A stretch of 64,000 bases of DNA. Origin: Sedimentisphaerales bacterium. GTDB taxonomy: Bacteria > Planctomycetota > Phycisphaerae > Sedimentisphaerales > SM23-30. The stretch lies in NCBI GenBank assembly GCA_963666285.1, contig OY762711.1; one strand, given 5' to 3'. Of the stretch, positions 44,128 through 64,000 are shown one piece after another (the stretch's first letter is position 1; each line of letters opens with the position of its first letter). The position numbers and the translations under genes were made by a program. Below the pieces are notes generated by a model. It was not told the DNA's origin and ran no database searches. It saw only the letters and a program-made list of their open reading frames with translations.

Positions 44128-44393
44128 TGCGCACACAGCCATTTTTTAGGGAATATTTAAAATAGAGAAAGCCTCATAAGTTATTTACTTACAAGGCTTT
44201 ATTAAGTACGCCATTTAGGACTCGAACCTAAAACCCACGGATTAAGAGTCCTAGCCCCGCCTCATAAAGCCTTTATTTACAGCACCTTATAAGCCATTTT
44301 TTGCGTAAAAATGGCGATTACAGGACAACAACAAGACAACACTAACCTCAATAACACGAGGTTGACAGTTGCGATTGACACCATTTTGACACC
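44128..44393. repeat. att-like junction copy 2 (uninterrupted)
   Basis: Left arm, hairpin and tRNA core (44128-44251) contiguous with the right arm (44252-44393). Confidence 0.92.
44207..44251 (-). pseudogene. 3' half of tRNA-Lys(CTT) (att core)
   Basis: Identical to 15477-15521; lacks the 5' half. Confidence 0.85.
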
Positions 44394-48800: not shown

Positions 48801-49675
48801 TTTTTGGCTTTGATTATTCCCAAAACTTCACAGTCCAAAGGGACAATTATTATGGGTTCGTTGTATGTCGCTAGTAAATTAATATTTGCATCTTTATCAG
48901 CAAAAATCATAGGAGGACATTGAGAAAAGTCGTCGCTTTTAACCTTTACTAATGAAGCTAGAAATAATGCTACTTCATCAACCGATTCTCCGTAAACTTG
49001 GATTTCATTTCTACTGCTAGTGATTGCCTCAACTAGCTCATCTTTAACCTTATTTCGGCCAGCAAAAACCAGCTCTGGAGATAACTCAAAATTGTATAAT
49101 ATTTCTTGAGTTTTTATGTATTGATTAACATCGTATAACCCTTTGGCAGGTAGTCCACAGACATCACAAAACCAAAGCATTACTACTGGACATTGCTCCA
49201 TCCAACTTACAATATCAGTTGAATCATATACACGAATGTCTTTCCACTCTGAATCGTTGGTATTCTTTCTTACCCATTCATGGTAACCCCATTTTTGTGA
49301 TGTGACAAATATGTAAGTTGAATTACTTGGTTTAATATCATCTTGCAGGTTTGAAAAATGCTTGGCTAGTTTTTCATCTGAACTCTTAAAATCATCATCG
49401 GCTTTTCTTTTTGGTTCTTTTGAAGTTCCAAATTCCCACAACGAAACACCATGCGGTATAAATTGATTATTGAACTGATTATCAGTAACCAATATCCCAT
49501 CAGCCCCTGGAAGGTTAATCTGATCGCCATAAGGGAATCGCTTCCAATTTATATGTTTTCGATCAATGCTTGCAGTTACTAATTTGTCAATTAACTGAGC
49601 TAACAGTTCTTGCCCATCTCTTCTGTCTGATGATAAATATTGCTCAATTGTTGTAGCATCTATAAATGATCTCAT
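45830..49675 (-). CDS. 1281-aa protein with N-terminal PD-(D/E)xK-like nuclease domain and long helical region; putative defence protein
   Basis: Intact long ORF; N-terminal PGADG...SLWEFGT...KADDD resembles restriction-endonuclease folds; no clear Walker A motif seen. Confidence 0.6.
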   Translation of the reverse strand: MRSFIDATTIEQYLSSDRRDGQELLAQLIDKLVTASIDRKHINWKRFPYGDQINLPGADGILVTDNQFNNQFIPHGVSLWEFGTSKEPKRKADDDFKSSDEKLAKHFSNLQDDIKPSNSTYIFVTSQKWGYHEWVRKNTNDSEWKDIRVYDSTDIVSWMEQCPVVMLWFCDVCGLPAKGLYDVNQYIKTQEILYNFELSPELVFAGRNKVKDELVEAITSSRNEIQVYGESVDEVALFLASLVKVKSDDFSQCPPMIFADKDANINLLATYNEPIIIVPLDCEVLGIIKAKNVPKWRIIIPRISGGVSGNTRNDEQITLGKCNRAALESYLSKYFDYSEHKVRQIVVDSKGSLAALFWILGADSNLSPKWVMQNDATVHASILLAGGWVESNLNDRKIIEKISGKSYREIENLIHTTLLPDGPWICQDGCWLSASKEYVWSQLASKITRSTLDNFQEIVIEVIGERDPSLDLEVSKRGMAQLLGKVRKYSGFLCKGLADSLARLAIVHSEGQRWANKIIRDLISPSLPDAEIRWISLRNVYSELAEAAPIVFLDSLEEILLKNPTMFYPDSSGTQDIFTQTSPHVFLLWALEQLAWMHEYFHNVLLILVKLAENAPNNIGGNNPLDSLVRILLPWRPQHSEELNDSVNVLDRMYMGSPDVTWKVAIGLLPKSHAITSPTVRPDYLGEVKERVVTNKEYWEFVLVLVTKMVSWCDSNPNRISELLEMYPDIQKGSPKVGKIIFDSLMQIDVNSWDDNDKAIVKETLNEMIKRHRTYNDADWALDEYALSHLDDINNKFELSDSVLKVKTYFTWEPNDPECPDGRYGYEWEKWISEKRISSCNEVYDQYGIDGVLRLAESVIIPSNVGQTTASIKLEKEEVNLIFQKALSISPDQLSCSPLLQFGRSYICTDCNQSGNSEEWLSKVLEYNIVWNDNIYSNLALCLPSSQAVWDKVKEWGSDVEKMYWLNVGTRFELRKQWEIALEKWKQYSNPCDAIELLAMLIERCDESEHAKLPSGEVVADLLQFALEVKNEPVSRHSNRQANSYYIEKLFCYLDSLDVDENIVSNLEWSYLRLLENSKRGIKVLYSTVCSSPDLFISILKLICNLDDDGNKMEQGRDSGIAQHGYHLLNGIHTIPGLAKTEDGVSVDVAKLKWWIQEARELADKIGIVGLCDSHIGKILSHAPLADDGIFPCVEVRDVIEDIYNKAIHDGFGVGVLNQRGAVFRGSGGKQEWELSKKYKEYADEIRIKWIKTASILDSIAKDYEEDAKKWDKRADFEEFS

Positions 49676-50557: not shown

Positions 50558-51115
50558 TTATTGATTCAACTCAAACTTTCCAGGCAATGCTTTCTTAAAG
50601 CGAGCATTATTACCCTTGCTCTTTATCTCCCGCAGGAAAGTCGCATACAAAGTATTAGCAGGTGTCTTGCCACCCTTGGCAGGTTCCCAGATTTTCCGTT
50701 CCAATGCAAGCTCAACAATATCCTTACAAGCCATCGGCTCTTTTGCATCCCGCAAGATTTCTATTGCTGCTCCAACCAAAGTAACCCTCTTATCCGGTGC
50801 TACCTTTTCAGTATCAGCCTTTACTTTATTAACAACTTTTTTAGTAACCTTTTTCTCAGCAGGTTTAGCTTTTTTAACAGTCTTCTTAGCTACCTTCTTT
50901 ACCGCTTTTTTAACAACTTTCTTTTCCTCCTTTTTAGGTGCGACCGCCGAAGTTACCAACTGTCCTGCTGTCTTAATATGAATCGTTTTTTCTGTTGCGG
51001 TATTTATCGTATCCCAGCCTCCCGATTCATGTTTCCCCGTAATTTTTACCGTTACAAGGCTATTTCTAACTTTAGTCTGGTAAATTCCGCCAATTCTTAC
51101 ATCTTCTGCTTTCAT
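50558..51115 (-). CDS. HARE-HTH (winged helix) protein with Lys/Ala-rich histone-like linker
   Basis: KKAVKKVAKKTVKK linker; C-terminal AAIEIL....PM.CKDIV...GGKTPANTLYATFLREI...KG..ARF.K...GKF. Confidence 0.75.
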   Translation of the reverse strand: MKAEDVRIGGIYQTKVRNSLVTVKITGKHESGGWDTINTATEKTIHIKTAGQLVTSAVAPKKEEKKVVKKAVKKVAKKTVKKAKPAEKKVTKKVVNKVKADTEKVAPDKRVTLVGAAIEILRDAKEPMACKDIVELALERKIWEPAKGGKTPANTLYATFLREIKSKGNNARFKKALPGKFELNQ

Positions 51116-51256: not shown

Positions 51257-53338
51257 TCAGCTAAAAAATCGCGAATTATCCTTATACACAATTTCAACTC
51301 TATCCGGAATCATCAACTCTTTGGCAACCAAAGCCTTCTCTATTTTTTGCATAGCCTTTTCGTTAGTCGCTAACACCACAACAGAAAAGCCCGACAATAG
51401 CCCGTGTCGCAAATTTTTCTCAAAGTCCGACCTTCCGGTCTCAATCTCAAAAATAAGCGTTTGTCCGGCCTTGTGTGCGAAGACATCGGCAACACCGCTG
51501 CCAAGCGTAGCTTCAATCTCAACCGTATAGCCAAGCTCCCGAAGACGGTTGGCATATCTATGCTTGTAATAGTAATGCTCTAGCGACTCATTACGTATTT
51601 CCTGTGGTATATCATTTTTATCCCTGCTTGCATAATCAATGACCAAGCCAACATCAATCCAGCCCTTTTTATCATGCCTAGTAATACCATTGGTCCTGGG
51701 CAGTCCAACTTTTTGAATACCAAAATTCTGCCGGCCTTTATCTGTCAAATGCAAAATGGTCTTTCTGGTATTACCATCATTGACAATTCTCTGGCTTACC
51801 CAACCTAAAGCTAAAAGTTCATCCTTAATTTCATTACCTTTCCATACACTAATACCAAGACGTTTATATCTTACTTTTACACCATCATCTGGATGGAGTA
51901 AAATATCTTGTACCAGACTAATAATCACGTCATCGGGATTATTAGAGGGTATCCGACCACCGACCCCGCAAAACCTGCCCGAATTCGGCAAAATTGGCCG
52001 ACCCTGCCCCGACCCCGCCAAATTCCCGGACATGTGCCGAACTACCACATCATCAGTTACCTGTCCTTTTGTCAGTTTTAGGTGGTCAAACGCCACTAGA
52101 AACGGGTTCGGCCAAGAATTCTGCAATTTTACAATTCCTGTACCAATTTCAAGCTGACTTAGGTAATGTTTTTCCGTATCATCAAGCAATGATAAACCTG
52201 CCGCTTTTGAAATATCAGAGGTATCTTTCAGGTTCAGGCAAATACTGGTGTGGATATTCCCTAGAGCAGATGAAGGCAACTGGCTTGGTTGCTGGTCAAC
52301 CAACACAACACCAATACCAAGCTCACGACATTGCCGAAGTAATGTTTCAGTTAGTGATTCATTAGTACTTTTACTTCTGTGCAGAACATTATGAGCTTCT
52401 TCGAGAATTAAAACTAATGATAATTTCTCACGACTCGAATCTGCAAACTTAACCTGATATGCCCAAGAAAACAACAACGGTACAATAAACTTCCTTGCAG
52501 ACTGTGAAATACTATCCAGTTCAACAATATTAACACCGTTTACCAGTTGTTTGGTAAAGCTTACCTGATCCTTTACAGTTCCGCCAGCCAATTTAGATAA
52601 CTTCAATTCTTCCAATGCTCGAAGTGCGGTTGCTTTCCAGCTATAACTCTTGGTTTTATTACCTACCTTCTTTACCGCATGATCTATTCCTTCGATAACC
52701 TGATCTATACTTATTACTTTACCATACTTATCATAAGCCCAAACCATTGCTTTCTGGATAAGACTTCTGGCACCATCACCTAAAGTATAAGCATTGGCCA
52801 GAACATCTACCAAATGCTGTAAATAGATGCTTGGCTCTATGCCTGGGGGTGGCGAGAATGGATTAAATGGAAATGGACTAACCGAACGACCAACAGTATA
52901 AACATTAGCCTTCTGTCTTGTTTTGAGATATGGCAGTATGTCACGACCATTTTTCTTCCAATCGAAAAATAATACTGGCATCCTTTTATCAACCAACTGC
53001 TTAAACAAGTTCATGACAACATTAGTTTTTCCGGCACCAGATCTACCAAGTATCGCAGTATGTTGTAACAACTGCTGATAGTTTAAGCCAAAGGAATGCT
53101 TTTTGGTATCGTATATAACATAACCAAGTTTCAAAGGTTTACTGGTAACTTTTGCAGGTGGCAATGACAAAACCTTAGCTTTCCTGGGATCACCAAATAT
53201 TTTATATGCAGTTGAGATAATCTGCTTTTCGATCAATTGCCTTGTTGCAAGGTCGCTCATATCACGAGCCTTCATCCATGTTTTGATTTTATCTGGCATT
53301 AAAGGCTCAAGCCAGAGAGCTATTTTCTCGATGTTCAT
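51257..53338 (-). CDS. HerA/FtsK/VirB4-like ATPase with C-terminal wHTH and PD-(D/E)xK-like motif
   Basis: HTAILGRSGAGKT (Walker A); LILEEAH (Walker B); RQCRELGIGVVLVDQQPSQL; C-terminal H...K...ADV....LIFEIETG. Confidence 0.8.
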   Translation of the reverse strand: MNIEKIALWLEPLMPDKIKTWMKARDMSDLATRQLIEKQIISTAYKIFGDPRKAKVLSLPPAKVTSKPLKLGYVIYDTKKHSFGLNYQQLLQHTAILGRSGAGKTNVVMNLFKQLVDKRMPVLFFDWKKNGRDILPYLKTRQKANVYTVGRSVSPFPFNPFSPPPGIEPSIYLQHLVDVLANAYTLGDGARSLIQKAMVWAYDKYGKVISIDQVIEGIDHAVKKVGNKTKSYSWKATALRALEELKLSKLAGGTVKDQVSFTKQLVNGVNIVELDSISQSARKFIVPLLFSWAYQVKFADSSREKLSLVLILEEAHNVLHRSKSTNESLTETLLRQCRELGIGVVLVDQQPSQLPSSALGNIHTSICLNLKDTSDISKAAGLSLLDDTEKHYLSQLEIGTGIVKLQNSWPNPFLVAFDHLKLTKGQVTDDVVVRHMSGNLAGSGQGRPILPNSGRFCGVGGRIPSNNPDDVIISLVQDILLHPDDGVKVRYKRLGISVWKGNEIKDELLALGWVSQRIVNDGNTRKTILHLTDKGRQNFGIQKVGLPRTNGITRHDKKGWIDVGLVIDYASRDKNDIPQEIRNESLEHYYYKHRYANRLRELGYTVEIEATLGSGVADVFAHKAGQTLIFEIETGRSDFEKNLRHGLLSGFSVVVLATNEKAMQKIEKALVAKELMIPDRVEIVYKDNSRFFS

Positions 53339-53781
53339 GACTTTACCAGTTTATGTCTTCCAACTAATGATACCAGTTTTTCCAGACACTTGCACTGACG
53401 GTCAAAAAAGTCCATCTCAATTCGTTTCCTCTTTTCCCATAATATGTTCAACTGCTCCTTTAACTTCGCAGCTTGAGGATCGGCTGGATTGATAAACCGG
53501 GAACCAAGTAAATGCAAACGTTCAAGGTCAGTTGATACCTGGCATTCAGCTTTTAAGATACCGTCAAGTGCATCTTTTTGCATCTGGTTTAACTTGGAAA
53601 TCTGCCATAAAATCAGTTCGGTCGCTTTTTCAATTCCAGAAGTGATAGAATCAGATGAGTTGTTGGGATTGTCGCTTGAATCTACAATTACTTCATTTAA
53701 TACGACCTCTGCTCTACTGATAACATTATCCTTGCCAACCGAATAATCAGGCTCAGATTTAATGTATCTTAAAGCGTTCAT
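53335..53781 (-). CDS. Hypothetical coiled-coil protein
   Basis: 148-aa ORF overlapping both neighbours by 4 bp (translational coupling). Confidence 0.65.
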   Translation of the reverse strand: MNALRYIKSEPDYSVGKDNVISRAEVVLNEVIVDSSDNPNNSSDSITSGIEKATELILWQISKLNQMQKDALDGILKAECQVSTDLERLHLLGSRFINPADPQAAKLKEQLNILWEKRKRIEMDFFDRQCKCLEKLVSLVGRHKLVKS

Positions 53782-54518
53782 TTACCAACCTCTTTTAATC
53801 GATCATTAGCCATTTGAATATATTCTGAATTCAGGTCAAAACCGATAAAGTTTCTACCGTGTTTCTTCGCAGCAACTGCGGTTGTGCCGCTTCCCATAAA
53901 TGGATCAAGCACTAAGTCGCCTTTATTAGAACTAACACACACAAGCCGTTCTATGAAGTTTAATGGCTTTTCAGTTGGATGTTTGGTATATCTTATACCA
54001 TTGGCATAGTGGAATACATTGATGCAATCCTGTTGAGATAAGAAGTTAAAAGTAACATCCTTATACTTTGAGCCTTTCTTCGAGGAGGACGGCTTTGTCA
54101 TATACATACATAATTCAAAGCTACTCCGCCAGTTACGTTTTGACATACTAGGCAATGGATTCTTTTTAACCATAGCCATAACACGCCTAAGTTGAAAACC
54201 TCTGGCAACGGCCTTTTTAATGAAATAACCATTATCCTCCTGCGCGGTAAACATATAGAATGAACCGCCAGGTTTCAAAACCCTATAACATTCAATTATT
54301 ACCTGACAGATTACATTAACAAAGTCAAAGGGATGGAACGTGTCCCACTTGCCCCATGCATCGGATGTACTTTTCAACTCTCCCTGCTGTATCGTCAAAG
54401 CATTATCAGATGCAATATTATACGGTGGATCTGTTACAATCAGGTCAACGCTGTTTGATTCTAGCTTCTTTAGCCCTTCAAGAGCATCAATTAGGTGGAT
54501 TTTATTTATTTTTAACAT
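53778..54518 (-). CDS. Site-specific DNA methyltransferase (N6A/N4C, beta class)
   Basis: Motif IV DPPY near the N-terminus; HPTEKP; motif I DPFMGSGT near the C-terminus. Confidence 0.92.
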   Translation of the reverse strand: MLKINKIHLIDALEGLKKLESNSVDLIVTDPPYNIASDNALTIQQGELKSTSDAWGKWDTFHPFDFVNVICQVIIECYRVLKPGGSFYMFTAQEDNGYFIKKAVARGFQLRRVMAMVKKNPLPSMSKRNWRSSFELCMYMTKPSSSKKGSKYKDVTFNFLSQQDCINVFHYANGIRYTKHPTEKPLNFIERLVCVSSNKGDLVLDPFMGSGTTAVAAKKHGRNFIGFDLNSEYIQMANDRLKEVGK

Positions 54519-55209
54519 TTTGAAGATTAGATACTGCTTTTCGCAATAGGTGCTGAAATTGTCTGCCTGTGGCAGTTAGGTCATACATGGGGTATGCACC
54601 ATTAGAATCAACTTTGGAAATTATTCCGTTTTCAACCAGACCTGGAATAACATTGTGGACATTATTCGTACCCATCTTGATATCAGGGTTACAGAATTTA
54701 GCATAGCGTTTGATGTCAGCAGGATATCGCGGCTGGTCTAATGCTAAAATAATAGCCTTTCGATAAGTATAACACACATAGCCATACAACTTCCAATCAA
54801 TATCAGATGATTGGCAGTATTGCTCAAATTGAGGATATAATAGTTTACGCCAGTATCTTCCAATATCAGTAAGGCCATATAGTCTGCTTCTATGTGCTTC
54901 TGGATTCACACAACAGATTATATTCTCCTGACATAAATCAGCTATAACATCACTACAATCTCTACGTGCAATATTTACCGTTGCATATAACTGACTTGCA
55001 GTCATGGGCTGATGGAGTTGTTTTAACAACTTTTGCCGCCTGTGACTTCTCAAAAGCCATTGTCCGGTTCGGTCAAAGTTCATTAGAACTATGTCGTCAC
55101 TACCTAATAACAACTTTCGCCCCTTTAAGGGGGTAAATAAAAAAGAAAAAGTTTTGTCAGCAGAAATACAGCTAACAGAGATACTCCTATATCGGTGTAA
55201 GTTACTCAT
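54502..55209 (-). CDS. Tandem winged-helix DNA-binding protein
   Basis: Two repeats ending in YGLTDIGR and YDLTATGR wing motifs; start uncertain. Confidence 0.65.
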   Translation of the reverse strand: MSNLHRYRSISVSCISADKTFSFLFTPLKGRKLLLGSDDIVLMNFDRTGQWLLRSHRRQKLLKQLHQPMTASQLYATVNIARRDCSDVIADLCQENIICCVNPEAHRSRLYGLTDIGRYWRKLLYPQFEQYCQSSDIDWKLYGYVCYTYRKAIILALDQPRYPADIKRYAKFCNPDIKMGTNNVHNVIPGLVENGIISKVDSNGAYPMYDLTATGRQFQHLLRKAVSNLQNVKNK

Positions 55210-55351
55210 ACCGAGAACGCCTTAAACTGGCTATATAGACGTTATTCGGCATTTATATCCCTTTTTGGCATTAGTTATCCTAAGAGGTTTTACAACCTTA
55301 ACAGGGTTGGTTTTTATAAATAGATTTTAGGTATAAAAGTATTGATTACAA

Positions 55352-55531
55352 ATGAAACAATGTCAACAATGTGAACTAATCCTACGACTAGGACAAAATG
55401 TTATTAAACTGGAAATAGGTGCAATAGGCCCTCACGGATTCCTGCCTCTCAGCAAAGAAATGCTATTTTGCAGTAAACAGTGCATAAGTTGCTTTATCCA
55501 AACCAGCACTAAGGTAGCAAATATACACTAA
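55352..55531 (+). CDS. 59-aa zinc-finger-like protein (not in ORF track), paralogue of 56109-56291
   Basis: Manual translation MKQCQQCELILRLGQNVIKLEIGAIGPHGFLPLSKEMLFCSKQC...; CxxC and FCSxxC motifs. Confidence 0.7.
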   Translation: MKQCQQCELILRLGQNVIKLEIGAIGPHGFLPLSKEMLFCSKQCISCFIQTSTKVANIH

Positions 55532-55559
55532 TTTCACTCTCAAATAATTTTAAGATAAA

Positions 55560-56012
55560 ATGAATAACAAAACAGTCAATGAAATATCTAAACGAGTAGA
55601 TGGCGTTTATGCTGAAATGCATGTTATCCAGAATATGCTCATGACTATCCGAGATCAGGATAGCAAGCCTTCAATAGATAATCATCTTGTAATGAAAGTA
55701 ATTAACATTCACCATCCATTACGTATTCAAAGCATATTCAGTAAAATGAGATGCCTGGCTGTGAAAATACGAATTACCAATAATGGCTTTACTGATGGCT
55801 ATAAACTAAGCATGGATTACATTCTACTCCAGAGTAAGGATGAGCATTATTGCAGTTTTCCAAAAGAAAAAGACATTCCTGATACTAGAATTAAATTTCT
55901 TGGGTCAGAAACAATGGTTCTTACTTTCATAGTCCCTAAAGAAATTTCTGAATTTAATATTTTGATTCGTGACCTGCATGGATTAAGAGCAATAGAATCA
56001 ATTTCTCAATAG
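55560..56012 (+). CDS. Hypothetical protein, possible beta-sandwich C-terminus
   Basis: 150-aa ORF; LAVKIRITNNG...LTFIVPK pattern. Confidence 0.5.
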   Translation: MNNKTVNEISKRVDGVYAEMHVIQNMLMTIRDQDSKPSIDNHLVMKVINIHHPLRIQSIFSKMRCLAVKIRITNNGFTDGYKLSMDYILLQSKDEHYCSFPKEKDIPDTRIKFLGSETMVLTFIVPKEISEFNILIRDLHGLRAIESISQ

Positions 56013-56108
56013 AATATTTATGTGTATTTCTTGAACTATCATATTATACTTAGTTTACTGCCTAAATCGATGATTCTTTTATAAAAACTATTACTCTTCA
56101 GAAGTAAC

Positions 56109-56291
56109 ATGAATATAAAGCAATGCCAGAAATGTAAACAATCTTTAAGGTTGGGTGAAAATGTAGTTTGTTTAGAAGTAGGTGTGATTGGGCCTCGTGG
56201 CTTTCTAAGGCTTGATGATGAAATCTTATTTTGCAGCAAGCAATGTTTGTTAACATACTTAAAAGAGTTTTACTATAAATTTATAGAATAA
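56109..56291 (+). CDS. 60-aa zinc-finger-like protein
   Basis: CQKC...LRLGENV..LEVG.IGP.GF......LFCSKQC; paralogue of 55352-55531. Confidence 0.7.
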   Translation: MNIKQCQKCKQSLRLGENVVCLEVGVIGPRGFLRLDDEILFCSKQCLLTYLKEFYYKFIE

Positions 56292-56453
56292 TATATGAAA
56301 TGAAAACAACAGAATTTATTAGGTTTATAGAAGATAACATAAAAACAGGTCTTACCACAGAAGCTATCATGAAAAATGCCTATGCGATATTATCAAATGA
56401 TAACAAATACCATACTATACAAAAATTAAAAACAGAGAATAGAAATACAAAAG

Positions 56454-56530
56454 GTTCCGGTAAAAACTGAACCTTTTGGGTAAGTCCCCCCTCCCAGATA
56501 TGAACCATAAGGTACATATTTTACCGGAAC
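56454..56530. repeat. 12-bp perfect inverted repeat enclosing a tRNA-3'-end-like sequence
   Basis: GTTCCGGTAAAA (56454-56465) and TTTTACCGGAAC (56519-56530); minus-strand GGTTCATATCTGGGAGGGGGGA at 56485-56506. Confidence 0.55.
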
Positions 56531-56561
56531 TTTTTTATAGCAGTACAATTTATACAATAAT

Positions 56562-57800
56562 ATGGAAGCCAAAGTCGATCATAAAAGAAAATACCTAAAC
56601 GCCAAAGAACGATTGTTTTCAGATGAAAATATATGCGCTGAAAATAGAAATTTATTCAAACGCTTTTTTACATACCAAGAAAGAAAACTTAAAAGAATCA
56701 ACAGATTACAGAATCTTGATCCTTCAACTTACAAAACACTTTATCAATATGTTAACAGATTCAAAAACACAAATAAATGGTTTAACAATAAACCGTGGAA
56801 ATCACTGACAAAAAAAGATATTGAGAAAGTATATAATGATTTAGAAGATGGCATTATCGTCAAAAGTAATGGCGAGATGTATAAAGACAGAGATGGCTAT
56901 TATGATAAAGTTTTCAAAAGTAAACCATTTGACATGGCTGGTGTTGGCAAATACGCCAGAGAAGTAATTGAGTACTGTACGAATATCGCTCCACATGTTA
57001 GATTTGCTAGTGACGAAGAGTTTCAAAAGATTGTTAATATAACATCAAATCCTTTACAAAAATTATTATTGTGGCTCTCGTTTGATATTGGAGAAAATGT
57101 TGATTCATTGCTACAACTTAAAAAAAATGACTTCTATCGAGAAATTAATCAATTTACTAAAGATCCGGAATATAGAGTAAATCTTAGAAATGAGATTCTG
57201 AAACGTAGCAGAAAAGCTAGGGCAGAAATAACAATCTATAGCGAAACAGTTAAATTACTGGATTTGATTTTAGAAGATCTAAAACCTAACGACTACATTT
57301 TTAATTTTGGATATAGAAGTGCAAAGAAATTTTTAGATAGATTAGTAAAAAAAGTTAATGCAAAATGCTTACCAAACGGTGAACTAATCACTTGGAAAGA
57401 CTTCAGAAGTGGTATGGCTTGTTCATTACTAAGAAAGGGATGGGTAACGGATGAAGTAAATGCTAGGTTAGGCCACAGACCTTCATCTAAAGAAATCGAC
57501 AAATATGTTGATTTTTTAGCATTAGATCGTCATAGACCGAAACAAAAAGTGCAGCAATATGAAATGTCTCAATTAAATGATGAACTGCAAAAATATAAAG
57601 AGGATGCAAAATTACAGGCAAAACGTCGTGAAGAAGAAAAGAATAAAGCTAATGAGCAGATGATTCAAATGGTAGAATTGTTAACAGAAAGTCTTATTAC
57701 TAATAGTCCAAAAATGGATCAAGATACTCTGAAAAGAAATGAGCCTATTTTCAATAAGTTGATCGATCTTAAGAGACATCTGATGCATAATAATACATAA
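56562..57800 (+). CDS. Tyrosine recombinase/integrase-like protein with atypical catalytic motifs
   Basis: WKDFRSGMA (HxxR position), RLGH and IDKY (catalytic Tyr); box I reads DIGENVDSLLQL; C-terminal coiled coil. Confidence 0.72.
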   Translation: MEAKVDHKRKYLNAKERLFSDENICAENRNLFKRFFTYQERKLKRINRLQNLDPSTYKTLYQYVNRFKNTNKWFNNKPWKSLTKKDIEKVYNDLEDGIIVKSNGEMYKDRDGYYDKVFKSKPFDMAGVGKYAREVIEYCTNIAPHVRFASDEEFQKIVNITSNPLQKLLLWLSFDIGENVDSLLQLKKNDFYREINQFTKDPEYRVNLRNEILKRSRKARAEITIYSETVKLLDLILEDLKPNDYIFNFGYRSAKKFLDRLVKKVNAKCLPNGELITWKDFRSGMACSLLRKGWVTDEVNARLGHRPSSKEIDKYVDFLALDRHRPKQKVQQYEMSQLNDELQKYKEDAKLQAKRREEEKNKANEQMIQMVELLTESLITNSPKMDQDTLKRNEPIFNKLIDLKRHLMHNNT

Positions 57801-57810
57801 GCTACCCCCA

Positions 57811-57833
57811 TAATCGGTTAAATATTCATAAAC
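57811..57833 (+). promoter_or_regulatory. Archaeal-type TATA-like promoter, duplicated at ~58647-58669
   Basis: AATC(G/A)GTTAAATATTCATAAAC lies ~25-30 bp upstream of the ATG in both paralogues; no Shine-Dalgarno. Confidence 0.5.
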
Positions 57834-57857
57834 CGTCTTTTTCTTTTTTTTATAACC

Positions 57858-58640
57858 ATGTCTGACCCAATCCAAGAATATGCACTAAATGCAATTTACG
57901 AAAAGCATTACAGCACAATTGAATCAATAATTGATACAGAAGATAAAGAGATAATAGATAATGCTCTTAACGATGCATACGAATCTGGCTTAACCCGTGG
58001 GATTGCAGAACATCCAAGATATACACGTATAGATATCGAAGGCAGAGATGGATGTTATGCGATATACAGAAAAAAGCCTGAAAGCAACACGATTACAACA
58101 GAAGTCCTTACTCCTGGCGTTAATCTAACGATGAAAACACCTGTGGATGATACCGCATTACAAATGGAATCCGCTGATCTTATTTATGAACTTATTCAAG
58201 GTGGAGAGCCAGCAATAGATGAACTTGATTGTTATTTACGACCATTCGAACATTTGGCCTGTAATAAAAATACGGTCAGAACAAACAAGGAAACTAAAAA
58301 GGAGCAGCCTTCGCTTGAAAAAATAGCAATCGAGCATTCAGGGGTAATGAACGATAAATTACCTGAAGGATATTCTCCAATAGAATACTTAGAAGATATG
58401 GGAGAGTTGGAGTATGAAATAAGCGAACTGGTACAGGAAGGAAAAGAATATCTTGCCAAAAATAAATATGATATGGCTTCACTTATATTTAAGGACGTAT
58501 CTAACCTGCAGAGCATACATGACAGCTTGACTGAAGCAGAAATAAAAGAAGTAATTGATGTTGTAGAAATTATGGATACTGCTGCAAGGGATCATATACC
58601 AAACAGGCTTTATAGTAATATCTATAAGATGAAATATTAA
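57858..58640 (+). CDS. Hypothetical protein, tandem paralogue A
   Basis: Full-length similarity to the next ORF (IDTED, LNDAY.SGL.RG..EHP.Y..IDIEG, ITTEVLTPG, RPFEHL, HIPNRLY). Confidence 0.75.
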   Translation: MSDPIQEYALNAIYEKHYSTIESIIDTEDKEIIDNALNDAYESGLTRGIAEHPRYTRIDIEGRDGCYAIYRKKPESNTITTEVLTPGVNLTMKTPVDDTALQMESADLIYELIQGGEPAIDELDCYLRPFEHLACNKNTVRTNKETKKEQPSLEKIAIEHSGVMNDKLPEGYSPIEYLEDMGELEYEISELVQEGKEYLAKNKYDMASLIFKDVSNLQSIHDSLTEAEIKEVIDVVEIMDTAARDHIPNRLYSNIYKMKY

Positions 58641-58697
58641 CCCCCTAAATCAGTTAAATATTCATAAACAGTTTTCATATTTTTCGTTTTGATACCC

Positions 58698-59462
58698 ATG
58701 ACTGACCCATTTCAAAAAACCGCAATAAATGCAATATATCAGAAATATTACAATAAGCCAGGCACTTTAATAGATACAGAAGATTCAGAACTGATAAGCA
58801 ATTCACTCAACGATGCCTATCAATCAGGATTAAATCGCGGACTCTTAGAACACCCAACATACAGGCAAATTGACATAGAAGGTTTGCTCGGACATTATGC
58901 CACCTATAAAAGAGAGCCAGATAGTAATATAATAACAACTGAAGTCCTAACCCCTGGAATAGAACTGGTAATTAAAACTTCTGTAGATGACTACGAAGAA
59001 CAACGATATGCTACAGAACAAATTTATAGGTTACTGGAATGTGAAACACCAACAGACAAGGATATTGATAAATATATGCGACCTTTTGAACATCTCTCCT
59101 CCAAGACAAGCAAACAAAAGAATGAACCTAAACCATCCTTAGAAAATATTACAGCGGAGTATAATTGTGGTATTTCTAGTAAGCTACCTGATGGTTATCA
59201 TTTAGTTGACTACATGGAAGATATTGGCGAATTAAAATTTGAGATTGATGAACTAATACATAAAGGAAAACTATCTGTAGAAAAAGCGAATTATCGTATG
59301 GCTGTATCCGAGTTTAAAGATGTTACTGACTTAAAGAGTATTCGGGCTTACTTATTACAAGGTAAATTTTCTAATGCAATATCTGGAATTGACAAACTTG
59401 ATACCAAAGCGAGGGAACACATACCCAATAGATTGTATGGGAAAATATACAAGATGGAATAA
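58698..59462 (+). CDS. Hypothetical protein, tandem paralogue B
   Basis: Start refined to MTDPF (ATG 58698) by alignment with MSDPI of paralogue A. Confidence 0.75.
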   Translation: MTDPFQKTAINAIYQKYYNKPGTLIDTEDSELISNSLNDAYQSGLNRGLLEHPTYRQIDIEGLLGHYATYKREPDSNIITTEVLTPGIELVIKTSVDDYEEQRYATEQIYRLLECETPTDKDIDKYMRPFEHLSSKTSKQKNEPKPSLENITAEYNCGISSKLPDGYHLVDYMEDIGELKFEIDELIHKGKLSVEKANYRMAVSEFKDVTDLKSIRAYLLQGKFSNAISGIDKLDTKAREHIPNRLYGKIYKME

Positions 59463-59531
59463 CAAACTTGCCTTACAAGTAAATCATCGTTAATATATTC
59501 AGATAACATTATGTAAATATGGAGAAATAAC

Positions 59532-59930
59532 ATGGAACTTAACATTATTGACTATTCATCACTCTGGTTCTGTGATATCAATAAAGAACCGCTTCCAGCT
59601 AAAAGGAATGGCAAATTCATCTTACTCATAAATGAAACTTCAAGGTGGGCAGTATTTTCTCCGAAGGCTCTATCCCCGTACCATGCTAATATTGCTGAAA
59701 GATTTTGTAGCCAACAAAATATCCCTGGGACATATAATGCAGCAAAATCTAAATATTATATCAGCGATCCTACCTGGAATATAAATGGTGGCGGCAGATG
59801 GGATATTGATGATGAGCAGAACTTGCTAACCATATATGGCTCTTCAGATGCTTATGGTAGCCTTGATCTTCACGGCTTATCTCGCATGATCGAAGAAACT
59901 GGTAAATATGAGAATGTGTGGGTGCGTTGA
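59532..59930 (+). CDS. Janus/Ocnus (PHPT1-like) phosphohistidine phosphatase homologue
   Basis: GKFIL, YHANI, GGGR and IYGSSDAYG match the order and content of the PHPT1-family motifs KYVL, YHADI, GGGRI and VYGYSMAYG. Confidence 0.6.
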   Translation: MELNIIDYSSLWFCDINKEPLPAKRNGKFILLINETSRWAVFSPKALSPYHANIAERFCSQQNIPGTYNAAKSKYYISDPTWNINGGGRWDIDDEQNLLTIYGSSDAYGSLDLHGLSRMIEETGKYENVWVR

Positions 59931-60098
59931 GAAAAAGATATAACCTCTCATATTCCACTGTTAATTTTATCCGCCAATGAGTCCCAATGTACACCAAATT
60001 CATTTACTAGCATTTGTACATCAATAGAACTTTTCATATTGAAAAGCTGACCTGCAATGTAGTGGAGTTCGTAAAGACAAATACCATAAATATGCGTT

Positions 60099-60314
60099 TT
60101 ACTTCATAAGCGAAAAAATACGCTCCTCTCTTTTTGTTGTTATTCCTTTATGCTCTTTTACAATTCCAAGTGACTTCATTAACTCCAACGCTTTAATCGC
60201 AGTACGCCATTGTGTTTGCGTTTTTATGGAAATTTGCCTTACCGACAACTCTTTTTCTGATTCTAAGAGTGATTTTATCAAACCAACGATATCTGGCAAT
60301 GTTCTTCTTATCAT
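60099..60314 (-). CDS. Small winged-helix transcriptional regulator
   Basis: LSVRQIS......WRTAIKALELMKSLGIV HTH pattern. Confidence 0.65.
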   Translation of the reverse strand: MIRRTLPDIVGLIKSLLESEKELSVRQISIKTQTQWRTAIKALELMKSLGIVKEHKGITTKREERIFSLMK

Positions 60315-60452
60315 ATCAGTATAACTATGCAGATACCTTTTTATACTACCTCTGCACAGTTATACATATATTGAATAAATTTTTCACTTTTGACTATGTT
60401 TCCGTAGTTAAAGGGAACTAAATATATAAAATGAAAGATAATACAGGTTAAT

Positions 60453-60587
60453 ATGATTGACAAAACAATAAAGGAAATACAGAAAATCATTAACATCTAT
60501 GAGAAAAAAGAAATTTCCGAAAAAGAAGCAATAGAAAGAATCCAGGCAAAGATTGATCTAGTCACTTTTGGATATATGAACAACTAA
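60453..60587 (+). CDS. 44-aa hypothetical protein (not in ORF track)
   Basis: MIDKTIKEIQKIINIYEKKEISEKEAIERIQAKIDLVTFGYMNN; TATATAAA at 60423-60430 upstream; divergent from the HTH gene. Confidence 0.4.
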   Translation: MIDKTIKEIQKIINIYEKKEISEKEAIERIQAKIDLVTFGYMNN

Positions 60588-60595
60588 TTTCATAC

Positions 60596-61885
60596 TTATT
60601 TTGGAATGCATACGACTTTGGAAAAACAAAATTCTTGAAACCCAATGTTTCCGTATTCTTTCGAATTCCCTGAATATTTAAGTCCACCAAATGGAATACT
60701 AGGATTCCAATGATTCGTATTGTTGATCTCAATTGTGCCAGCATTTAGTTTAGATGCAATATTAAGCGCAGTATTCTTATCATTTGTAAATATATTTGCC
60801 CCTAAATCAAATTTGACTGAATTTGCAAGCCTAACCGCCTCATCATCACTTTTGAATGTAATGATTGGTAAAATTGGACCAAACACTTCTTCGTTCCATA
60901 CTTTCATTTGTTCATTAACATTAGATAAAAGCGTAGGTTGAAAAAATAATGGATTACTGTAATCTGTATTGTTCTTATGTTCAATTGCTCCATTATTTAT
61001 TGCATCTTTATACTGCTCACAAATCTTTTTGAAAAAAATATCGTTAATCAACGGCCCAAGTTCTGAAAAGTTATCATTTGGGTCACCAATCTTCTTTTTA
61101 CCAATACAGAATAACATTTTTTCAACAAATTCGTCAATTTTATCTTCATGAATAATTACTCGTTTTATTGCATCACAATACTGACCGTTATTAAAGAATC
61201 TCTCAAAATATATTTTGTCAATAATGCCATCAATGTCTGCATCATTAAAAATAATTGCAGGATTCGATCCACCTAGTTCAAGGTTTGGAATAATGTTTTT
61301 TGGAAGTAAATCCTGTGAAATTACCTTACCAGTCTCTCTACTGCCTGTAAACCAAACACCGTCAATATCTTGGCTAATCATTTTTTCTCCAAGAGTTTTA
61401 TCTCCTTGAAATAATTTCAAATAATCAGCTAAATCAGTTTGAGATAATAATTCATTCATTATTTTTGAAAAATTTTTGCTATACTCTGAGAATTTAACTA
61501 CAACCGTGTTACCAACAAGTAAATTTGGGATTACTCCTGATATAAATATTCCAAATGGAAAGTTCCAAGGAAGAATGACAGCATATAGACCCTTTGCTTG
61601 ATATTAGATTTTTGATATTTGCTTTTTATTTTCAAATAATATTTTATCAGCAATTGACTTTTCTACGTTATTTAAGTACCAATCAAATACTTCTAAATTG
61701 AAATCAATTTCAGCCATAGATTGACCAATAGGTTTATTTGTATCAACCGTTATCGAGTTTGCAATAATATTTTTGTTGCTACAAATCAATTCAAATAGTT
61801 CCTTTATAATATCTATTCTATATTCCAAACCGTTTTCAGACCATGCGATTTGAGTATCCTTTAAATGTTTAATAGTTTGTTCCAT
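60596..61885 (-). pseudogene. Aldehyde dehydrogenase interrupted by one in-frame TAA (61604-61606)
   Basis: Reads ...QISKI*YQAKGLYAVILPWNFP...GNTVVVKFSE in frame into FTGS, LELGG, NGQYC, EEVFGP, PFGG.K.SG. Confidence 0.85.
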
Positions 61886-61887
61886 TG

Positions 61888-62559
61888 TTATAACATAAAT
61901 TTAGTTCTTTCGTATGACTTGTATAGTACAGCAATCCCTTTTTTGTCTTTGAGATAAATAGGGTATTTTTCAAAATCGAATCCATTAATATTCGCTTTAA
62001 CACAATCACTAAATATCAATGAATAATTATCTGAATCTTGATGTTTTAAAGCCATATAGCTTGAAATTAATTCTGAATGGAAATTTGCTGATATATCAGA
62101 TACTAATCGATTGCTAAATGAAGTATATTTAGGACTAAATATATAATCTTTATTATTGACCTTAATAATTAGATAATTGTGGGGAACGTATCCTAATTGG
62201 GCATATTTCTCGCCAGCAGGAGTTTGCTCAATTATATTTTTTTTATATTTTTCTTCAATTATCCCATAACCCCTAAGCATTTCAATGTTTTTACATCCTT
62301 TAGATATAAGAGCGATTGCTGTTGCGACTGAATATTGATCGCAACCTGAATAGAACCGCTCGTCAAACACTTCTTCATACAACCTTTTTACAAGATCTTT
62401 TTTGTGTATTGCAATCAGAATACTAACAATAGTTTCATCAACAAAATCTGGGTTGTAAGTAATTTCCGAAAATTCTTCCAACCATTTGTTATAGGCTTCA
62501 TTGTCTTTGATATTTTCATTCATATAGAATTTTGATTCATGTTCATTCATGTTTTCCAT
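61888..62559 (-). CDS. Hypothetical protein, possible transglutaminase/papain-like fold
   Basis: GCDQYS...helix...PHNYLII pattern (Cys...His); overlaps the upstream ORF. Confidence 0.5.
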   Translation of the reverse strand: MENMNEHESKFYMNENIKDNEAYNKWLEEFSEITYNPDFVDETIVSILIAIHKKDLVKRLYEEVFDERFYSGCDQYSVATAIALISKGCKNIEMLRGYGIIEEKYKKNIIEQTPAGEKYAQLGYVPHNYLIIKVNNKDYIFSPKYTSFSNRLVSDISANFHSELISSYMALKHQDSDNYSLIFSDCVKANINGFDFEKYPIYLKDKKGIAVLYKSYERTKFML

Positions 62560-62953
62560 TTTTCTTCTCGTAGTCCTCTATTAACCAGACACTCGTTTTA
62601 TTCTCACTAATCATATTATCAATAATATTATTAATATTATGATTAGATAAATCATCAAAGGATGATTTGGTATAATCTATGCCACATAGCAATTGGTCTA
62701 TTGACAATATAAACTTTTGCATACCTGTAGATTTAAGCCCTCCATTATCAATAATAATCACATTTATATTTATTCCTTTTGAGACCGCTTCTTTAAGTGC
62801 TAAGATCGCAGAATGCCGTAATCCTCCATCGCCTAAAATTGCAAAAACATTATTTTGACCAGATAACCTTGAACCAAATGCACTAGCTATTGAACCGCCA
62901 AGACACAGAATTGAATAATAACATATGTAATTCCTCTCTTCCTCAAAGAAGGA
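62543..62953 (-). pseudogene. 5'-truncated thiamine-diphosphate-binding domain
   Basis: Frame is open upstream of the listed GTG back to the stop at 62954-62956: LCLGGSIASAFG...FAILGDGG...VIIIDNGG..STG.Q (GDG-x-N motif); no ATG upstream of the motif. Confidence 0.7.
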
Positions 62954-62986
62954 TTAGATGTGCGTTTAAGTCTTCGGGAGATTCAT

Positions 62987-63511
62987 TCAAGAATTATTCA
63001 TTAGATACTTTTGACAGTATTTATGACAACCTTCAATTTCTAGATTTACCTTGCAAAAATGAGCTACATCTTTACACGCAGAGAAATATCCAAGATTAAT
63101 GATGTCAGATTTTATTTCATTATCATAGGCATCGAAAACATCTTTGGTCAAGGTATTTGTAAAAAAGAACACATCAGTATCATTTAATGTAGTATTTAAT
63201 GATAAGTTTAATGATGGATAATAGTCATCGCAGTATTTTTTACAATTTGGTGTAAACGGATATTTTTTGCAATGATTAATAATCTCTGAACATGTTGAAA
63301 AATATTCATTTGTTATTTTATTTACTTGTTCAGCTAAAGGTAAATCATCAAAATTCGATTGAATATAGAATTCTGTTCCCGCTGAATCACTGGTAATTAC
63401 ACTTTCAGTTGAGAAAATCCTTATCCTAAATAAAACAATTATCAACAATAAGGTAAAAATACATATCCCTATACTCAATGCAGGATGTAGCTCTGTATTT
63501 CCCGTTGCCAT
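62987..63511 (-). CDS. Membrane-anchored hypothetical protein with two Cys-rich repeats
   Basis: N-terminal transmembrane helix; YFS.C.....HC/FC......C.KYC twice; TTTATAAA 23-30 bp upstream of the ATG. Confidence 0.6.
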   Translation of the reverse strand: MATGNTELHPALSIGICIFTLLLIIVLFRIRIFSTESVITSDSAGTEFYIQSNFDDLPLAEQVNKITNEYFSTCSEIINHCKKYPFTPNCKKYCDDYYPSLNLSLNTTLNDTDVFFFTNTLTKDVFDAYDNEIKSDIINLGYFSACKDVAHFCKVNLEIEGCHKYCQKYLMNNS

Positions 63512-63619
63512 TTTATTAACTTATTATCATTTCTTTATAAACATTTTTATCGAAAGATTATAAAAATAAGTAGTAATGTTTATAAAGTTAGAATTCACAA
63601 TTAAAATCTATGGGGGAAA

Positions 63620-64000
63620 ATGATGAAAAATAGTTTAGCTGTTATATTAACATTTCTTTTTGTGCTTACATCTTGTTTAAGCGGTTGTACTTCACACGAA
63701 TTAAACACAGAAAAGCCTTATTCTGAAGTTACAAACTTAGAGGCAACTGAACAAGAAAAAATAATTGTTGATGCTGAGTCTAGCGAAAAAAAGATAGAAT
63801 CACAAGCCCCAACTTATATTGGTAATTTTAGAGTGCAAGACAACGATAGAGAATTAGAAATAATATTTAGTCTTTATGATCCTTCTAAAGCATACATGTC
63901 CTCAAATGGTTATGTATCCATAAGGATAGAATCAAATAATGGAAAGACTTTGTATTTAGATAATCATCGTGTTCTTGAATCTGACTTTTCAACATTTACC
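63620..64000 (+). CDS. Lipoprotein, 3'-partial (not in ORF track)
   Basis: MMKNSLAVILTFLFVLTSCLSGCTS lipobox; frame open to the window end; GGGGG RBS-like sequence and TTTATAAA upstream. Confidence 0.7.
   Translation, partial: MMKNSLAVILTFLFVLTSCLSGCTSHELNTEKPYSEVTNLEATEQEKIIVDAESSEKKIESQAPTYIGNFRVQDNDRELEIIFSLYDPSKAYMSSNGYVSIRIESNNGKTLYLDNHRVLESDFSTFT

Follow-up and report, generated by a model that had tools for sequence, protein, structure and literature searches.

AT-rich DNA of probable Nanobdellota origin in the variable slot of a planctomycete tRNA-Lys island

Gene content and ends of the island

The window analysed here is a 64,000-nt stretch of the chromosome of a Sedimentisphaerales bacterium, part of which belongs to a composite island of 66 kb inserted at tRNA-Lys (44.2-110.1 kb; positions past the window end are window equivalents). 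The intact tRNA-Lys(CTT) lies at 110096-110169, 46 kb past the window end, and its 3′ part is duplicated as a direct repeat at the opposite end of the island (left attachment repeat, 44160..44251, minus strand, 92% identical over 92 nt to 110051-110141). A third copy of this repeat was seen at 15398-15521. A 421-aa tyrosine integrase (PF00589) ends 75 nt from the tRNA and has a small HTH gene as its neighbour; the island also encodes ParB, ArdC and an ATPase of the HerA/FtsK superfamily. The cargo includes a 1281-aa protein without a Pfam match (45830..49675, minus strand), a 43% relative of which lies beside a related element in genome G089. A HARE-HTH gene (50558..51115, minus strand; PF05066, E 7e-12) follows in DNA common to the element of genome G031. 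The island then contains a module coding, in order, for a HerA-type ATPase, a helical protein, a methyltransferase, a winged-helix protein, a Nanobdellota-type tyrosine recombinase and small accessory proteins, ahead of a variable slot that is followed by a PEP-CTERM gene (no match among 251 Nanobdellota genomes) and the gene for a short, 197-aa XerC-like recombinase. A diverged copy with the same gene order, referred to below as the paralogue, is present in the same genome (G000:C1:2.946-2.975 Mb; 68% DNA identity over 4.6 kb).

The backbone ATPase (51257..53338, minus strand) is of the HerA/DUF87 type (PF01935, E 2e-14), with a C-terminal winged-helix-like region, no predicted membrane segment and possibly a PD-(D/E)XK domain, to judge from a PDDEXK_9 match of E 0.02 only. 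Its structural model (pLDDT 82) matched best the fold of HerA 4d2i (E 2.5e-16); scores fell far below cut-off for the CedD and CedB models and below cut-off for TrwB and VirB4. The ATPase occurs in 40 of 251 genomes of the host's order and was not found in three of three genomes of the same genus, nor were relatives found in viral contigs with single-sequence and alignment queries. In a tree that left out G320 and G399 (no usable ORF) and G496, it belonged to a planctomycete clade; this and all other trees were built with FastTree without bootstrap, and most of their rows are unlabelled. Adjoining the ATPase are genes for a conserved helical protein (53335..53781, minus strand; 41-57% to the paralogue, G031 and G034), an N6/N4 DNA methyltransferase (53778..54518, minus strand; PF01555, E 3e-45; 68-79% in sister elements) and a double winged-helix protein (54502..55209, minus strand; weak wHTH Pfam matches; 70% to the paralogue), and then two small backbone genes of 59 and 150 aa (55352..56012, plus strand; 63% and 66% to the paralogue).

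The tyrosine recombinase at 56562..57800 (plus strand; PF00589 below cut-off) keeps R282, H305 and Y315, and conservation indicates that invariant DxGEN and KD(F)R motifs replace the usual first arginine and HxxR. Its homologues are 48-59% identical, and the six named matches comprise three archaeal and three bacterial ones. The gene was detected in 6 of 251 Nanobdellota genomes (best 57%; the best genome-placed match is in a Nanobdellota chromosome), in 2 of 251 Planctomycetota genomes, its own counted, and on no plasmid. Domains were intermixed, without clustering, in a tree of 54 rows (the top 40 matches and the labelled rows; P0078 and P0026 were dropped as likely duplicates). Several homologues sit after tRNAs or tRNA-like ends. 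The paralogue carries a different recombinase at this position (no tblastn match), and the 56562 gene was therefore swapped at some time. What the initial annotation had taken for a tRNA-like site at the junction turned out to be an inverted repeat (56449..56535) with 31-nt arms (84%) and a 25-nt spacer; ARAGORN found no tRNA in the window, and Rfam none in 50-64 kb at E<=1. Any likeness of the spacer to a tRNA goes, by eye, no further than a decayed 3′ end. The repeat is a possible candidate for a recombinase binding site. As a conserved site it was rejected, being absent upstream of seven of eight homologues, with a weak one in L026, and no second copy was found in 44-110 kb.

Next come two tandem paralogous genes at 57858 and 58698 (57858..59462, plus strand; 260 and 254 aa, 50% identical), which are fused forms of two small element-specific genes. 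This family was present in 4 of 41 relatives, the own genome counted, and has 23 representatives; three of the ten looked up were named, all Planctomycetota, and a member is on record in the cultured Limihaloglobus sulfuriphilus. An Atlas search with the 57858 protein gave no usable match. The Janus/Ocnus-like gene that follows (59532..59930, plus strand) has a bacterial Shine-Dalgarno (SD) motif and is 58% identical to its counterpart in the paralogue. A 71-aa HTH-like protein (60099..60314, minus strand; 59% to the paralogue) is Nanobdellota-like, with matches of 63%, 57% and 37% in 3 of 161 Nanobdellota genomes, and the TATA-like box at −31 of its gene is present also in the paralogue. A TATA box (−30) with a 44-aa ORF (60423..60587, plus strand) forms the last stretch common to the paralogue, and the variable slot begins after 60587.

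Composition and contiguity of the AT-rich stretch

The end of the window had been described as AT-richer, and GC content is indeed 0.317 at 56485-64000 against 0.389 at 1-44100, values of 0.32 or less being found in just 13 of 2535 5-kb windows of the genome. The switch does not lie at 56485, where it had been placed: GC change points fall at ~55.25 kb, where the two small backbone genes begin, and at 79.1 kb, with a GC of 0.31 between them, the stretch extending beyond the window. Nor is 56485 the end of an inserted archaeal element, since the attachment repeats are those at 44.2 and 110.1 kb and homology to the paralogue runs through this position (51.3-56.3 kb, and genes to 60.57 kb). The block is cargo within the tRNA-Lys island.

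The region 44364-64000 is covered by a single 36,758-bp contig in each of two runs, X1 and X2, with 0 differences and with depths of 22.4 and 26.8, compared to 20 and 21.6 for the left flank contig. Both runs come from one sample, possibly the source sample, and the comparison uses contigs, not reads, over 44364-64000; for the right end of the stretch, at 79 kb, coverage follows from the length of the contig only. In X3, a different sample, 27 of 30 bins had depth, unevenly (0-47), and 38 of 40 contigs were at least 99% alike; none of the X3 pieces listed bridges 56-57 kb. X1 and X2 show a 26-letter loose end at 56090, which was rejected as an excision joint, the genome having no match at up to 3 mismatches. 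Because one unchanged contig per run crosses 44.4-64 kb at flank-like depth, a chimera, as had been suggested, is unlikely. The AT-rich stretch is genuine and belongs to the planctomycete chromosome, with contiguity over 44.4-64 kb.

Archaeal features of the cargo

In this copy the slot spans ~18.4 kb (60.6-79.0 kb). An aldehyde dehydrogenase (ALDH) pseudogene (60596..61885, minus strand; in-frame stop at codon 94 of 429) is 69% identical over 430 aa to P0255, a protein encoded on a 938,934-bp contig; its three best matches are unnamed, and the 11 organism-named ones (40-48%) come from Patescibacteria (6), Proteobacteria (3) and archaea (2). With an ALDH alignment run against metagenomes in search of a donor locus, the best of at least 80 loci reached 46%. 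The next genes encode a 223-aa protein (61888..62559, minus strand; weak papain-like Pfam match below cut-off), a fragment of a TPP-binding enzyme lacking a start codon (62543..62923, minus strand; PF02775, E 8e-11), which like the pseudogene is a broken gene, and a 174-aa membrane-anchored protein (62987..63541, minus strand). A 328-aa lipoprotein-like gene starts at 63620 (63620..64000, plus strand); its product has relatives in 4 of 161 Nanobdellota genomes (26-34%, best E 2e-41) and lies nearest to bacterial lipoprotein clusters in the Atlas (0.87-0.89, weak and leads only). Beyond the window, the cargo encodes a 2759-aa FG-GAP membrane protein, a split PEP-utilising enzyme, HAD, radical SAM and NUDIX proteins and an archaeal-type GlyRS.

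GlyRS, a housekeeping gene, is nested in an archaeal clade: of the 19 organism-named matches among the 119 listed, 18 are archaeal, and in the tree it falls in an SH-100 clade of 38 rows of which the 4 labelled ones are all archaeal. It is 31% identical to the host's own GlyRS. The radical SAM gene has relatives in 5 of 301 Nanobdellota genomes (30-34%). Taken gene by gene, the HTH-like protein (57-63%), the recombinase (up to 57%), the 63620 protein, radical SAM and FG-GAP point to Nanobdellota, but names are mixed across domains for ALDH and the recombinase, and 61888, 62987, NUDIX and HAD remain unplaced. Several of the Nanobdellota matches (HTH, recombinase, 63620) lie in plain archaeal context, beside genes for ribosomal proteins and EF-1alpha. 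No donor-level (>75%) or syntenic donor match was found among the matches and loci listed, and codon usage fails to separate the cargo from low-GC host DNA.

All five TATA-like motifs that the initial annotation had reported ~22-37 bp upstream of genes are present, none with an SD-like word. Those before 56562 (56532..56539, plus strand), 60453 and 63511 (TTTATAAA, 63534-63541, ahead of the 174-aa protein gene) start exactly 30 nt ahead of the ATG; the two before 57858 and 58698, at −33 and −37, are non-canonical and lack support. A TATA motif at −29 to −31 precedes 4 of 11 cargo genes (Fisher P 1e-6; 0 of 5000 shuffles), compared to 28 of 3976 host genes and 2 of 76 genes in low-GC host windows. 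The significance stems from 60.4-79.0 kb, the strict motif within the window alone preceding 1 of 7 long genes; motif and offset were picked after seeing the data. In Nanobdellota control loci the motif peaks at the same offset (35 of 375 genes; each of eight further 3-nt windows gave 0-5). SD words precede 1 of 11 cargo genes but 1811 of 3976 host genes, so that the cargo combines the fixed-offset TATA box and the scarcity of SD motifs expected of Nanobdellota-derived DNA. Left of 51 kb, where GGAG-type ribosome-binding sites had been noted, 14 of 30 genes do have an SD-like word, and TTTATAW at −24 to −36 precedes 0 of 30. Sequence comparison thus supports the view that much of the AT-rich DNA is derived from Nanobdellota (Woese-/Pacearchaeota-like), in line with the DPANN-type origin first proposed, on the strength of the GlyRS tree, the promoter offset and the Nanobdellota matches. 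The proposal does not extend to the genes at 57858, 58698 and 59532, for which no archaeal relatives were seen. Expression of most of the cargo in the planctomycete is probably poor, because TATA/BRE promoters are not used by the RNA polymerase of bacteria.

Recurrence, rival explanations and possible route

With different archaeal-style cargo, the layout recurs elsewhere in the own genome and across further members of the order, two of which have it on a single contig. Gene order is the same in G031 (single contig) and G034, and foreign DNA occupies the same slot in the paralogue and G031; the ATPase has a related recombinase nearby in G095 (48%), G116 (43%, broken) and G604 (52%). The ATPase element of G078 (single contig) carries a TATA-led FG-GAP gene (24% over 925 aa to the cargo FG-GAP) and a gene 31% like a Nanobdellota gene with what we take to be a class-III-signal-peptide motif. 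In several elements an FG-GAP gene is retained next to PEP-CTERM genes. Among Nanobdellota, full-length ATPase relatives occur in 22 of 301 genomes. Related ATPase-recombinase elements are found in two (G356 and G482), and both ATPase copies fall outside the clade of Nanobdellota chromosomal ATPases. Several of the lone chromosomal ATPases are followed by compositionally foreign DNA; 34 ORFs downstream of lone ATPases gave 3 Pfam matches only.

Taking together the contiguity, the island ends, the recurrence of the layout, the archaeal placement of GlyRS, the promoter offset and the two broken genes, we consider it likely that this is a planctomycete composite island at tRNA-Lys in which an order-resident module holds, in its slot, ~18.4 kb of Nanobdellota-derived DNA with archaeal leaderless-type promoters and early decay. 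An assembly chimera, in which a Nanobdellota fragment was joined to a planctomycete metagenome contig, is very improbable. X1 and X2 do have the look of metagenomes, with 743-868 Mb of contigs, chimeras that join several domains have been documented in metagenomes assembled from long reads (10.1101/2025.04.22.649783), and GC and gene-level taxonomy shift here, with a loose end at 56090; yet an unbroken, separately assembled contig crosses 56-57 kb at flank-like depth in two runs, the same slot holds foreign DNA in two further copies, and the broken genes fit resident, decaying DNA.

It is also very unlikely that a whole archaeal integrative element entered at ~56485, using the 56562 recombinase for integration and the inverted repeat for attachment. 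The placement of the best recombinase match in a Nanobdellota chromosome, the homologues after tRNAs or tRNA-like ends, the repeat and −30 box directly upstream and the swapped gene in the paralogue would agree with such an event, but the site has no second copy, sister-element homology picks up again just past the recombinase and continues to 60.57 kb, and the 57858/58698 family has only planctomycete-named members. Hardly more probable is a cargo of AT-rich DNA from bacteria, such as Patescibacteria, or of mixed mobile DNA, with chance TATA words: mostly Patescibacterial names for ALDH, the occurrence of the recombinase in bacteria, uninformative codon usage and the bacterial Atlas leads would fit it, whereas the −30 offset, which neither the shuffles nor the low-GC host windows reproduce, the GlyRS placement and the HTH matches speak against it.

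Actinomycete AICEs, which are integrative conjugative elements (ICEs), use an FtsK-type translocase, and the island resembles ICEs and AICEs in its integrase, adjacent small HTH, ParB, ArdC and HerA/FtsK-superfamily ATPase. Unlike ICEs, it had no relaxase, coupling protein, VirB4 or other type IV secretion (T4SS) family over cut-off in Pfam/NCBIfam scans of most island ORFs, and its ATPase has no predicted membrane segment. The scans named no prophage genes (capsid, terminase, tail). With tRNA-integrated islands with tyrosine integrases, as outlined in an excerpt on Islander (PMC4383910), it shares an integrase beside a tRNA, a tRNA 3′ fragment displaced to the opposite end and restriction-modification and other cargo; it differs from that outline in cargo apparently from another domain, promoters intact, that includes a housekeeping aminoacyl-tRNA synthetase. 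Archaeal integrons, described in part of one source as cross-domain platforms with archaeal-to-bacterial gene flow, Nanoarchaeota included (PMC9668308), likewise place a tyrosine recombinase beside a variable region. Here, no IntI-type match exceeded cut-off (TIGR02249: none for 56562; 80.5 bits for the XerC-like gene against a cut-off of 265), and the cargo is a multi-gene block on alternating strands rather than single attC-separated cassettes, with no repeated intergenic site in an island self-comparison. The Ced DNA import system of Sulfolobales has CedB/CedD ATPases (PMC11823120), and the models of both pick up the island ATPase, CedD at E 2e-20, but at 73 bits for CedD (cut-off 600) and 57 bits for CedB (cut-off 700), with no CedA-type membrane partner recognised and within a putative mobile element. 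Closest in partners are the DPANN-Omnitrophota clusters on groundwater plasmids (10.64898/2026.05.20.726742), where Nanobdellota and a PVC-group bacterium share genes via mobile elements; as far as the cited part describes them, those are single protein clusters on small plasmids, unlike the 18-kb block in a recurring slot of a planctomycete chromosome.

How such DNA arrived can be outlined tentatively. The element family would pass through both Nanobdellota and planctomycete cells, pick up neighbouring archaeal chromosome and then re-integrate in the bacterium, the ATPase serving as DNA translocase in place of a relaxase and T4SS; we regard this route, whose direction we infer, as somewhat short of an even chance. 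Uptake of free archaeal DNA and its recombination into the slot is possible but rather unlikely. Similarly doubtful is the broader proposal that HerA-ATPase/tyrosine-recombinase elements without conjugation genes shuttle between Nanobdellota and anaerobic planctomycetes at cell contact, repeatedly bringing in blocks of archaeal chromosome.

In listings from full-text searches of open-licence PMC and bioRxiv, neither this element family nor the presence of Nanobdellota blocks in genomes of planctomycetes was found described. Real DNA can be lost when archaeal-looking regions are removed from bacterial genomes as contaminants, and the island offers a natural experiment on the fate of archaeal promoters inside a bacterium. 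Attempts to find the partners of Woesearchaeota by co-occurrence and cell sorting have not settled the matter (PMC11606122), and murein-transglycosylase-like proteins have been taken to suggest bacterial hosts (PMC8204110); a recurring influx of Nanobdellota DNA, locatable to a single order of planctomycetes, would name a candidate partner. If the shuttle exists, these islands would record, in genomic form, that a DPANN archaeon lives on a planctomycete host, and the lone chromosomal ATPases of Nanobdellota could mark flow in the reverse direction.

Anatomy of the tRNA-Lys island

The window occupies positions 3328001-3392000 of C1, the main contig (6.15 Mb, 41% GC) of the four-contig host genome G000 (completeness 97%, contamination 2.6%). 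Two bacterial 16S genes and a tmRNA identify the host as a bacterium, and PF07596 matches at six places, compared to none in 14 control genomes, suggest that it is planctomycete-like. The direct repeat at 44160-44251 reproduces, at 92% identity over 92 nt, the 3′ part of tRNA-Lys(CTT) plus adjoining sequence at 110051-110141, and a 421-aa integrase adjoins tRNA-Lys(CTT). The AT-rich feature therefore sits inside a 66-kb island (44.2-110.1 kb; coordinates beyond 64000 are window-equivalent).

From left to right, a gene coding for a HerA/DUF87-type ATPase (51257-53338; closest fold match HerA) is followed by genes for a helical protein, a methyltransferase and a winged-helix protein, two small genes, a tyrosine recombinase gene (56562), two paralogues, an Ocnus-like gene, an HTH gene and a 44-aa ORF. 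The variable slot (60.6-79.0 kb) contains an ALDH gene with an in-frame stop, a TPP-enzyme fragment, genes for a 2759-aa FG-GAP membrane protein and a split PEP-utilising enzyme, and HAD, radical SAM, NUDIX and glycyl-tRNA synthetase (GlyRS) genes. Beyond it lie a PEP-CTERM gene, a 197-aa XerC-like gene, a beta-helix/PEP-CTERM-type cluster, a type I restriction system, a ParB/ArdC block, a second ATPase-like gene, a PP2C-kinase-vWA set and an integrase.

A 40-nt AT-rich palindrome (62607-62646) lies within the TPP-enzyme remnant. A perfect 18-bp inverted repeat at 80671-80882 (L001:18671-18882), upstream of the XerC-like gene, may be a site of inversion. With the kinase module as reference, the ATPase-XerC module lies in the opposite orientation to its counterpart in the paralogous copy. 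A third tRNA-Lys attachment repeat (15398-15521, 98% identical to 44128-44251), which has an IS as its neighbour, points to another island in tandem at 15.4-44.2 kb; further copies occur elsewhere on C1. The three other contigs of G000 (C2, C3 and C4) are related and about 65 kb each; C2 and C3, the two examined, resemble temperate phages and have beta-helix/PEP-CTERM-type clusters in common with the island at 81-86 kb.

Continuity of the join and recurrence of the layout

The initial annotation had proposed either an archaeal element or a chimeric contig from 56485. Three sequencing runs contain the stretch: X1 and X2, from one sample, and X3, from a second sample in the study. In both X1 and X2, a single 36,758-bp contig spans 44364-64000 without differences or gaps, at a depth of 22.4 and 26.8, compared to 20 and 21.6 for the left flank contig, and the only breaks between contigs fall at the repeat close to 44.2 kb. 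This evidence consists of assembled contigs rather than reads over 44364-64000, probably from the source sample. X3 yielded short pieces to either side, with coverage in 27 of 30 bins and at least 99% likeness in 38 of 40 contigs; none of the listed pieces spans 56-57 kb. A short X1/X2 contig departs from the reference at 56090 with 26 letters that have no match in the genome.

Independently of reads, the layout recurs in diverged form, which is not expected of a chance mis-join. At C1:2.946-2.975 Mb the module occurs again, with 68% DNA identity over 51.8-56.3 kb; the two copies have genes in common as far as 60.57 kb and from 79.8 kb onwards, and the slot of the second, about 4 kb long, contains a 1107-aa FG-GAP gene preceded by a -30 box. 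The single-contig locus of G031 has the same gene order, with a TATA-led 1160-aa relative (28%) of that FG-GAP gene, and G034 combines the backbone and a recombinase with the paralogue family and an FG-GAP relative. The ATPase is present in 40 of 251 genomes of the host's order. Ten further loci were read: the 56562-type recombinase occurs in G095 (48%) and G116 (43%), with a distant one in G136 (23%), and the paralogue-type recombinase in G017 and G089 (26-27%). G078 (single contig) has archaeal-looking genes, with ParB and methyltransferase 70% and 68% identical to the island's 95-98 kb genes; the loci of G069, G101 and G106 gave no recombinase-type or comparable match. Together these data show an island integrated at tRNA-Lys and a module conserved around a slot of varying content, which is filled with archaeal-type DNA in several separate elements. 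With the junction unbroken at flank-like depth in X1 and X2 and the layout recurring, a chimera is very unlikely.

Composition, promoters and origin of the cargo

The AT-richness noted at the outset was borne out (GC 0.317 at 56485-64000 compared to 0.389 at 1-44100); the change points, however, fall at 55,250, not 56485, and 79,100, which makes the AT-rich block about 24 kb long, mostly beyond the window. At the supposed junction, an inverted repeat (56449-56535) was detected in place of a tRNA. Three of five proposed TATA boxes begin exactly 30 nt before the ATG; the other two, at -33 and -37, depart from the canonical sequence. Using a fixed motif picked post hoc with the data already seen (TTTATAW beginning at -29 to -31; ORFs of at least 100 aa; up to three candidate ATGs), we found boxes at 4 of 11 genes in 60.4-79.0 kb compared to 28 of 3976 in the remaining chromosome (Fisher P = 1e-6; 4 reached in 0 of 5000 shuffles), at 1 of 7 genes inside the window and at 2 of 76 in low-GC host windows. 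Independent backing comes from the peak in archaeal control loci, where 35 of 375 Nanobdellota genes carry the motif and alternative offsets give 0-5. SD-like words precede 1 of 11 cargo genes compared to 1811 of 3976 elsewhere on the chromosome. A second archaeal-style stretch (94800-100700; L002:12800-18700) contains ParB, methyltransferase and ArdC genes, and two of its six genes have such -30 boxes. At 63611-63625, an ATG in another frame lies 9 nt ahead of the 63620 start and 32 nt downstream of a TTTATAAA box; it marks a short leader or, alternatively, damage to the start.

The cargo GlyRS has top matches of 60-74%, 18 of the 19 organism-named rows among the 119 listed being archaeal, and falls within a clade (SH 100) whose four labelled rows are all archaeal; the host's own GlyRS (31% identical) lies far outside. 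Nanobdellota relatives were found for the HTH protein at 60099 (63%, 57% and 37%; 3 of 161 genomes), the 63620 protein (4 of 161, best E 2e-41) and radical SAM (5 of 301, 30-34%), and none for the PEP-CTERM gene in 251 Nanobdellota genomes. The best ALDH match (70%) lies on a 938,934-bp contig that also appears to carry an archaeal-type GlyRS match, and named matches are mostly Patescibacteria (40-48%). With 23 representatives, the 57858/58698 family is small; the three named among ten looked up are Planctomycetota. Archaeal ancestry is thus supported for GlyRS, HTH, 63620 and radical SAM, with a mixed picture for ALDH and planctomycete-named relatives for 57858/58698; the in-window part is a mosaic, the clearest archaeal block beginning near 60 kb.

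Recombinase, ATPase and route of transfer

The 56562 recombinase was matched at 45-57% in 6 of 251 Nanobdellota genomes, where its surroundings are archaeal chromosome, and in 2 of 251 Planctomycetota, including G000. Since organism-named matches split 3:3 between domains and the tree mixes domains (5 changes each, as low in 220/500 and 246/500 shuffles), neither direction of transfer is favoured. Canonical tyrosine recombinases have a first catalytic Arg and HxxR. Across 120 members of the family of this gene (56562-57800), an invariant DxGEN stands where the first Arg is expected, KD(F)R replaces HxxR, and Arg is invariant at 215, 217 and 220, predicting an atypical active site.

The island ATPase groups with 12 other host-order copies (SH 100), ten Nanobdellota chromosomal copies form a separate clade (SH 100), and two Nanobdellota copies beside recombinases, in G356 and G482:C2, are placed with weak support among deep bacterial branches. 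Given full-length relatives in 22 of 301 Nanobdellota genomes (25-32%), the family spans both domains, and the tree suggests that the island's copy has long resided in planctomycetes. The unpublished genome G496 is one of the 22 and enters into no other result. Lone chromosomal Nanobdellota ATPases precede same-strand ORF runs in G515:C1 (L069), G338:C1 (L075), G311:C5 (L074) and G394:C1 (L067), with a GC shift in three (G515, 0.44-0.50 vs about 0.56; G338, 0.46 vs 0.33; G311, 0.58 vs 0.48); three degenerate tRNA calls fall in the G338 run, and TraT is encoded in that of G394. The ATPase genes of G457 and G499 instead have tRNA-Thr and tRNA-Val behind them and show no GC shift. The position after the lone ATPases is possibly a foreign-DNA hotspot.

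The island is a real, unusual feature, and probably a resident island holding genuine Nanobdellota-derived cargo. Its characters are those of a tRNA-integrated genomic island; it failed the tests for an ICE, an integron and a Ced system. Elements would enter Nanobdellota chromosomes, as the recombinase family and ATPase-recombinase pairs found there suggest, exit carrying adjacent host DNA and integrate in planctomycetes, a shuttle that we propose tentatively. No relaxase or T4SS gene was recognised in the island, leaving the ATPase as sole candidate DNA motor. The main alternative is that free DNA was taken up and then recombined into the slot.

Cross-domain transfer is already known for integrons (PMC9668308) and for DPANN-Omnitrophota clusters on plasmids (10.64898/2026.05.20.726742). 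Listings of open-access papers, the scope of our search, showed no account of this element family, nor of Nanobdellota blocks within planctomycete genomes. Most of the cargo is probably silent, and it is probably beginning to decay, with two broken genes within the window; a large surface-protein gene recurring beside the PEP-CTERM gene may be kept. That the islands record a DPANN-planctomycete partnership is conceivable, if rather unlikely.
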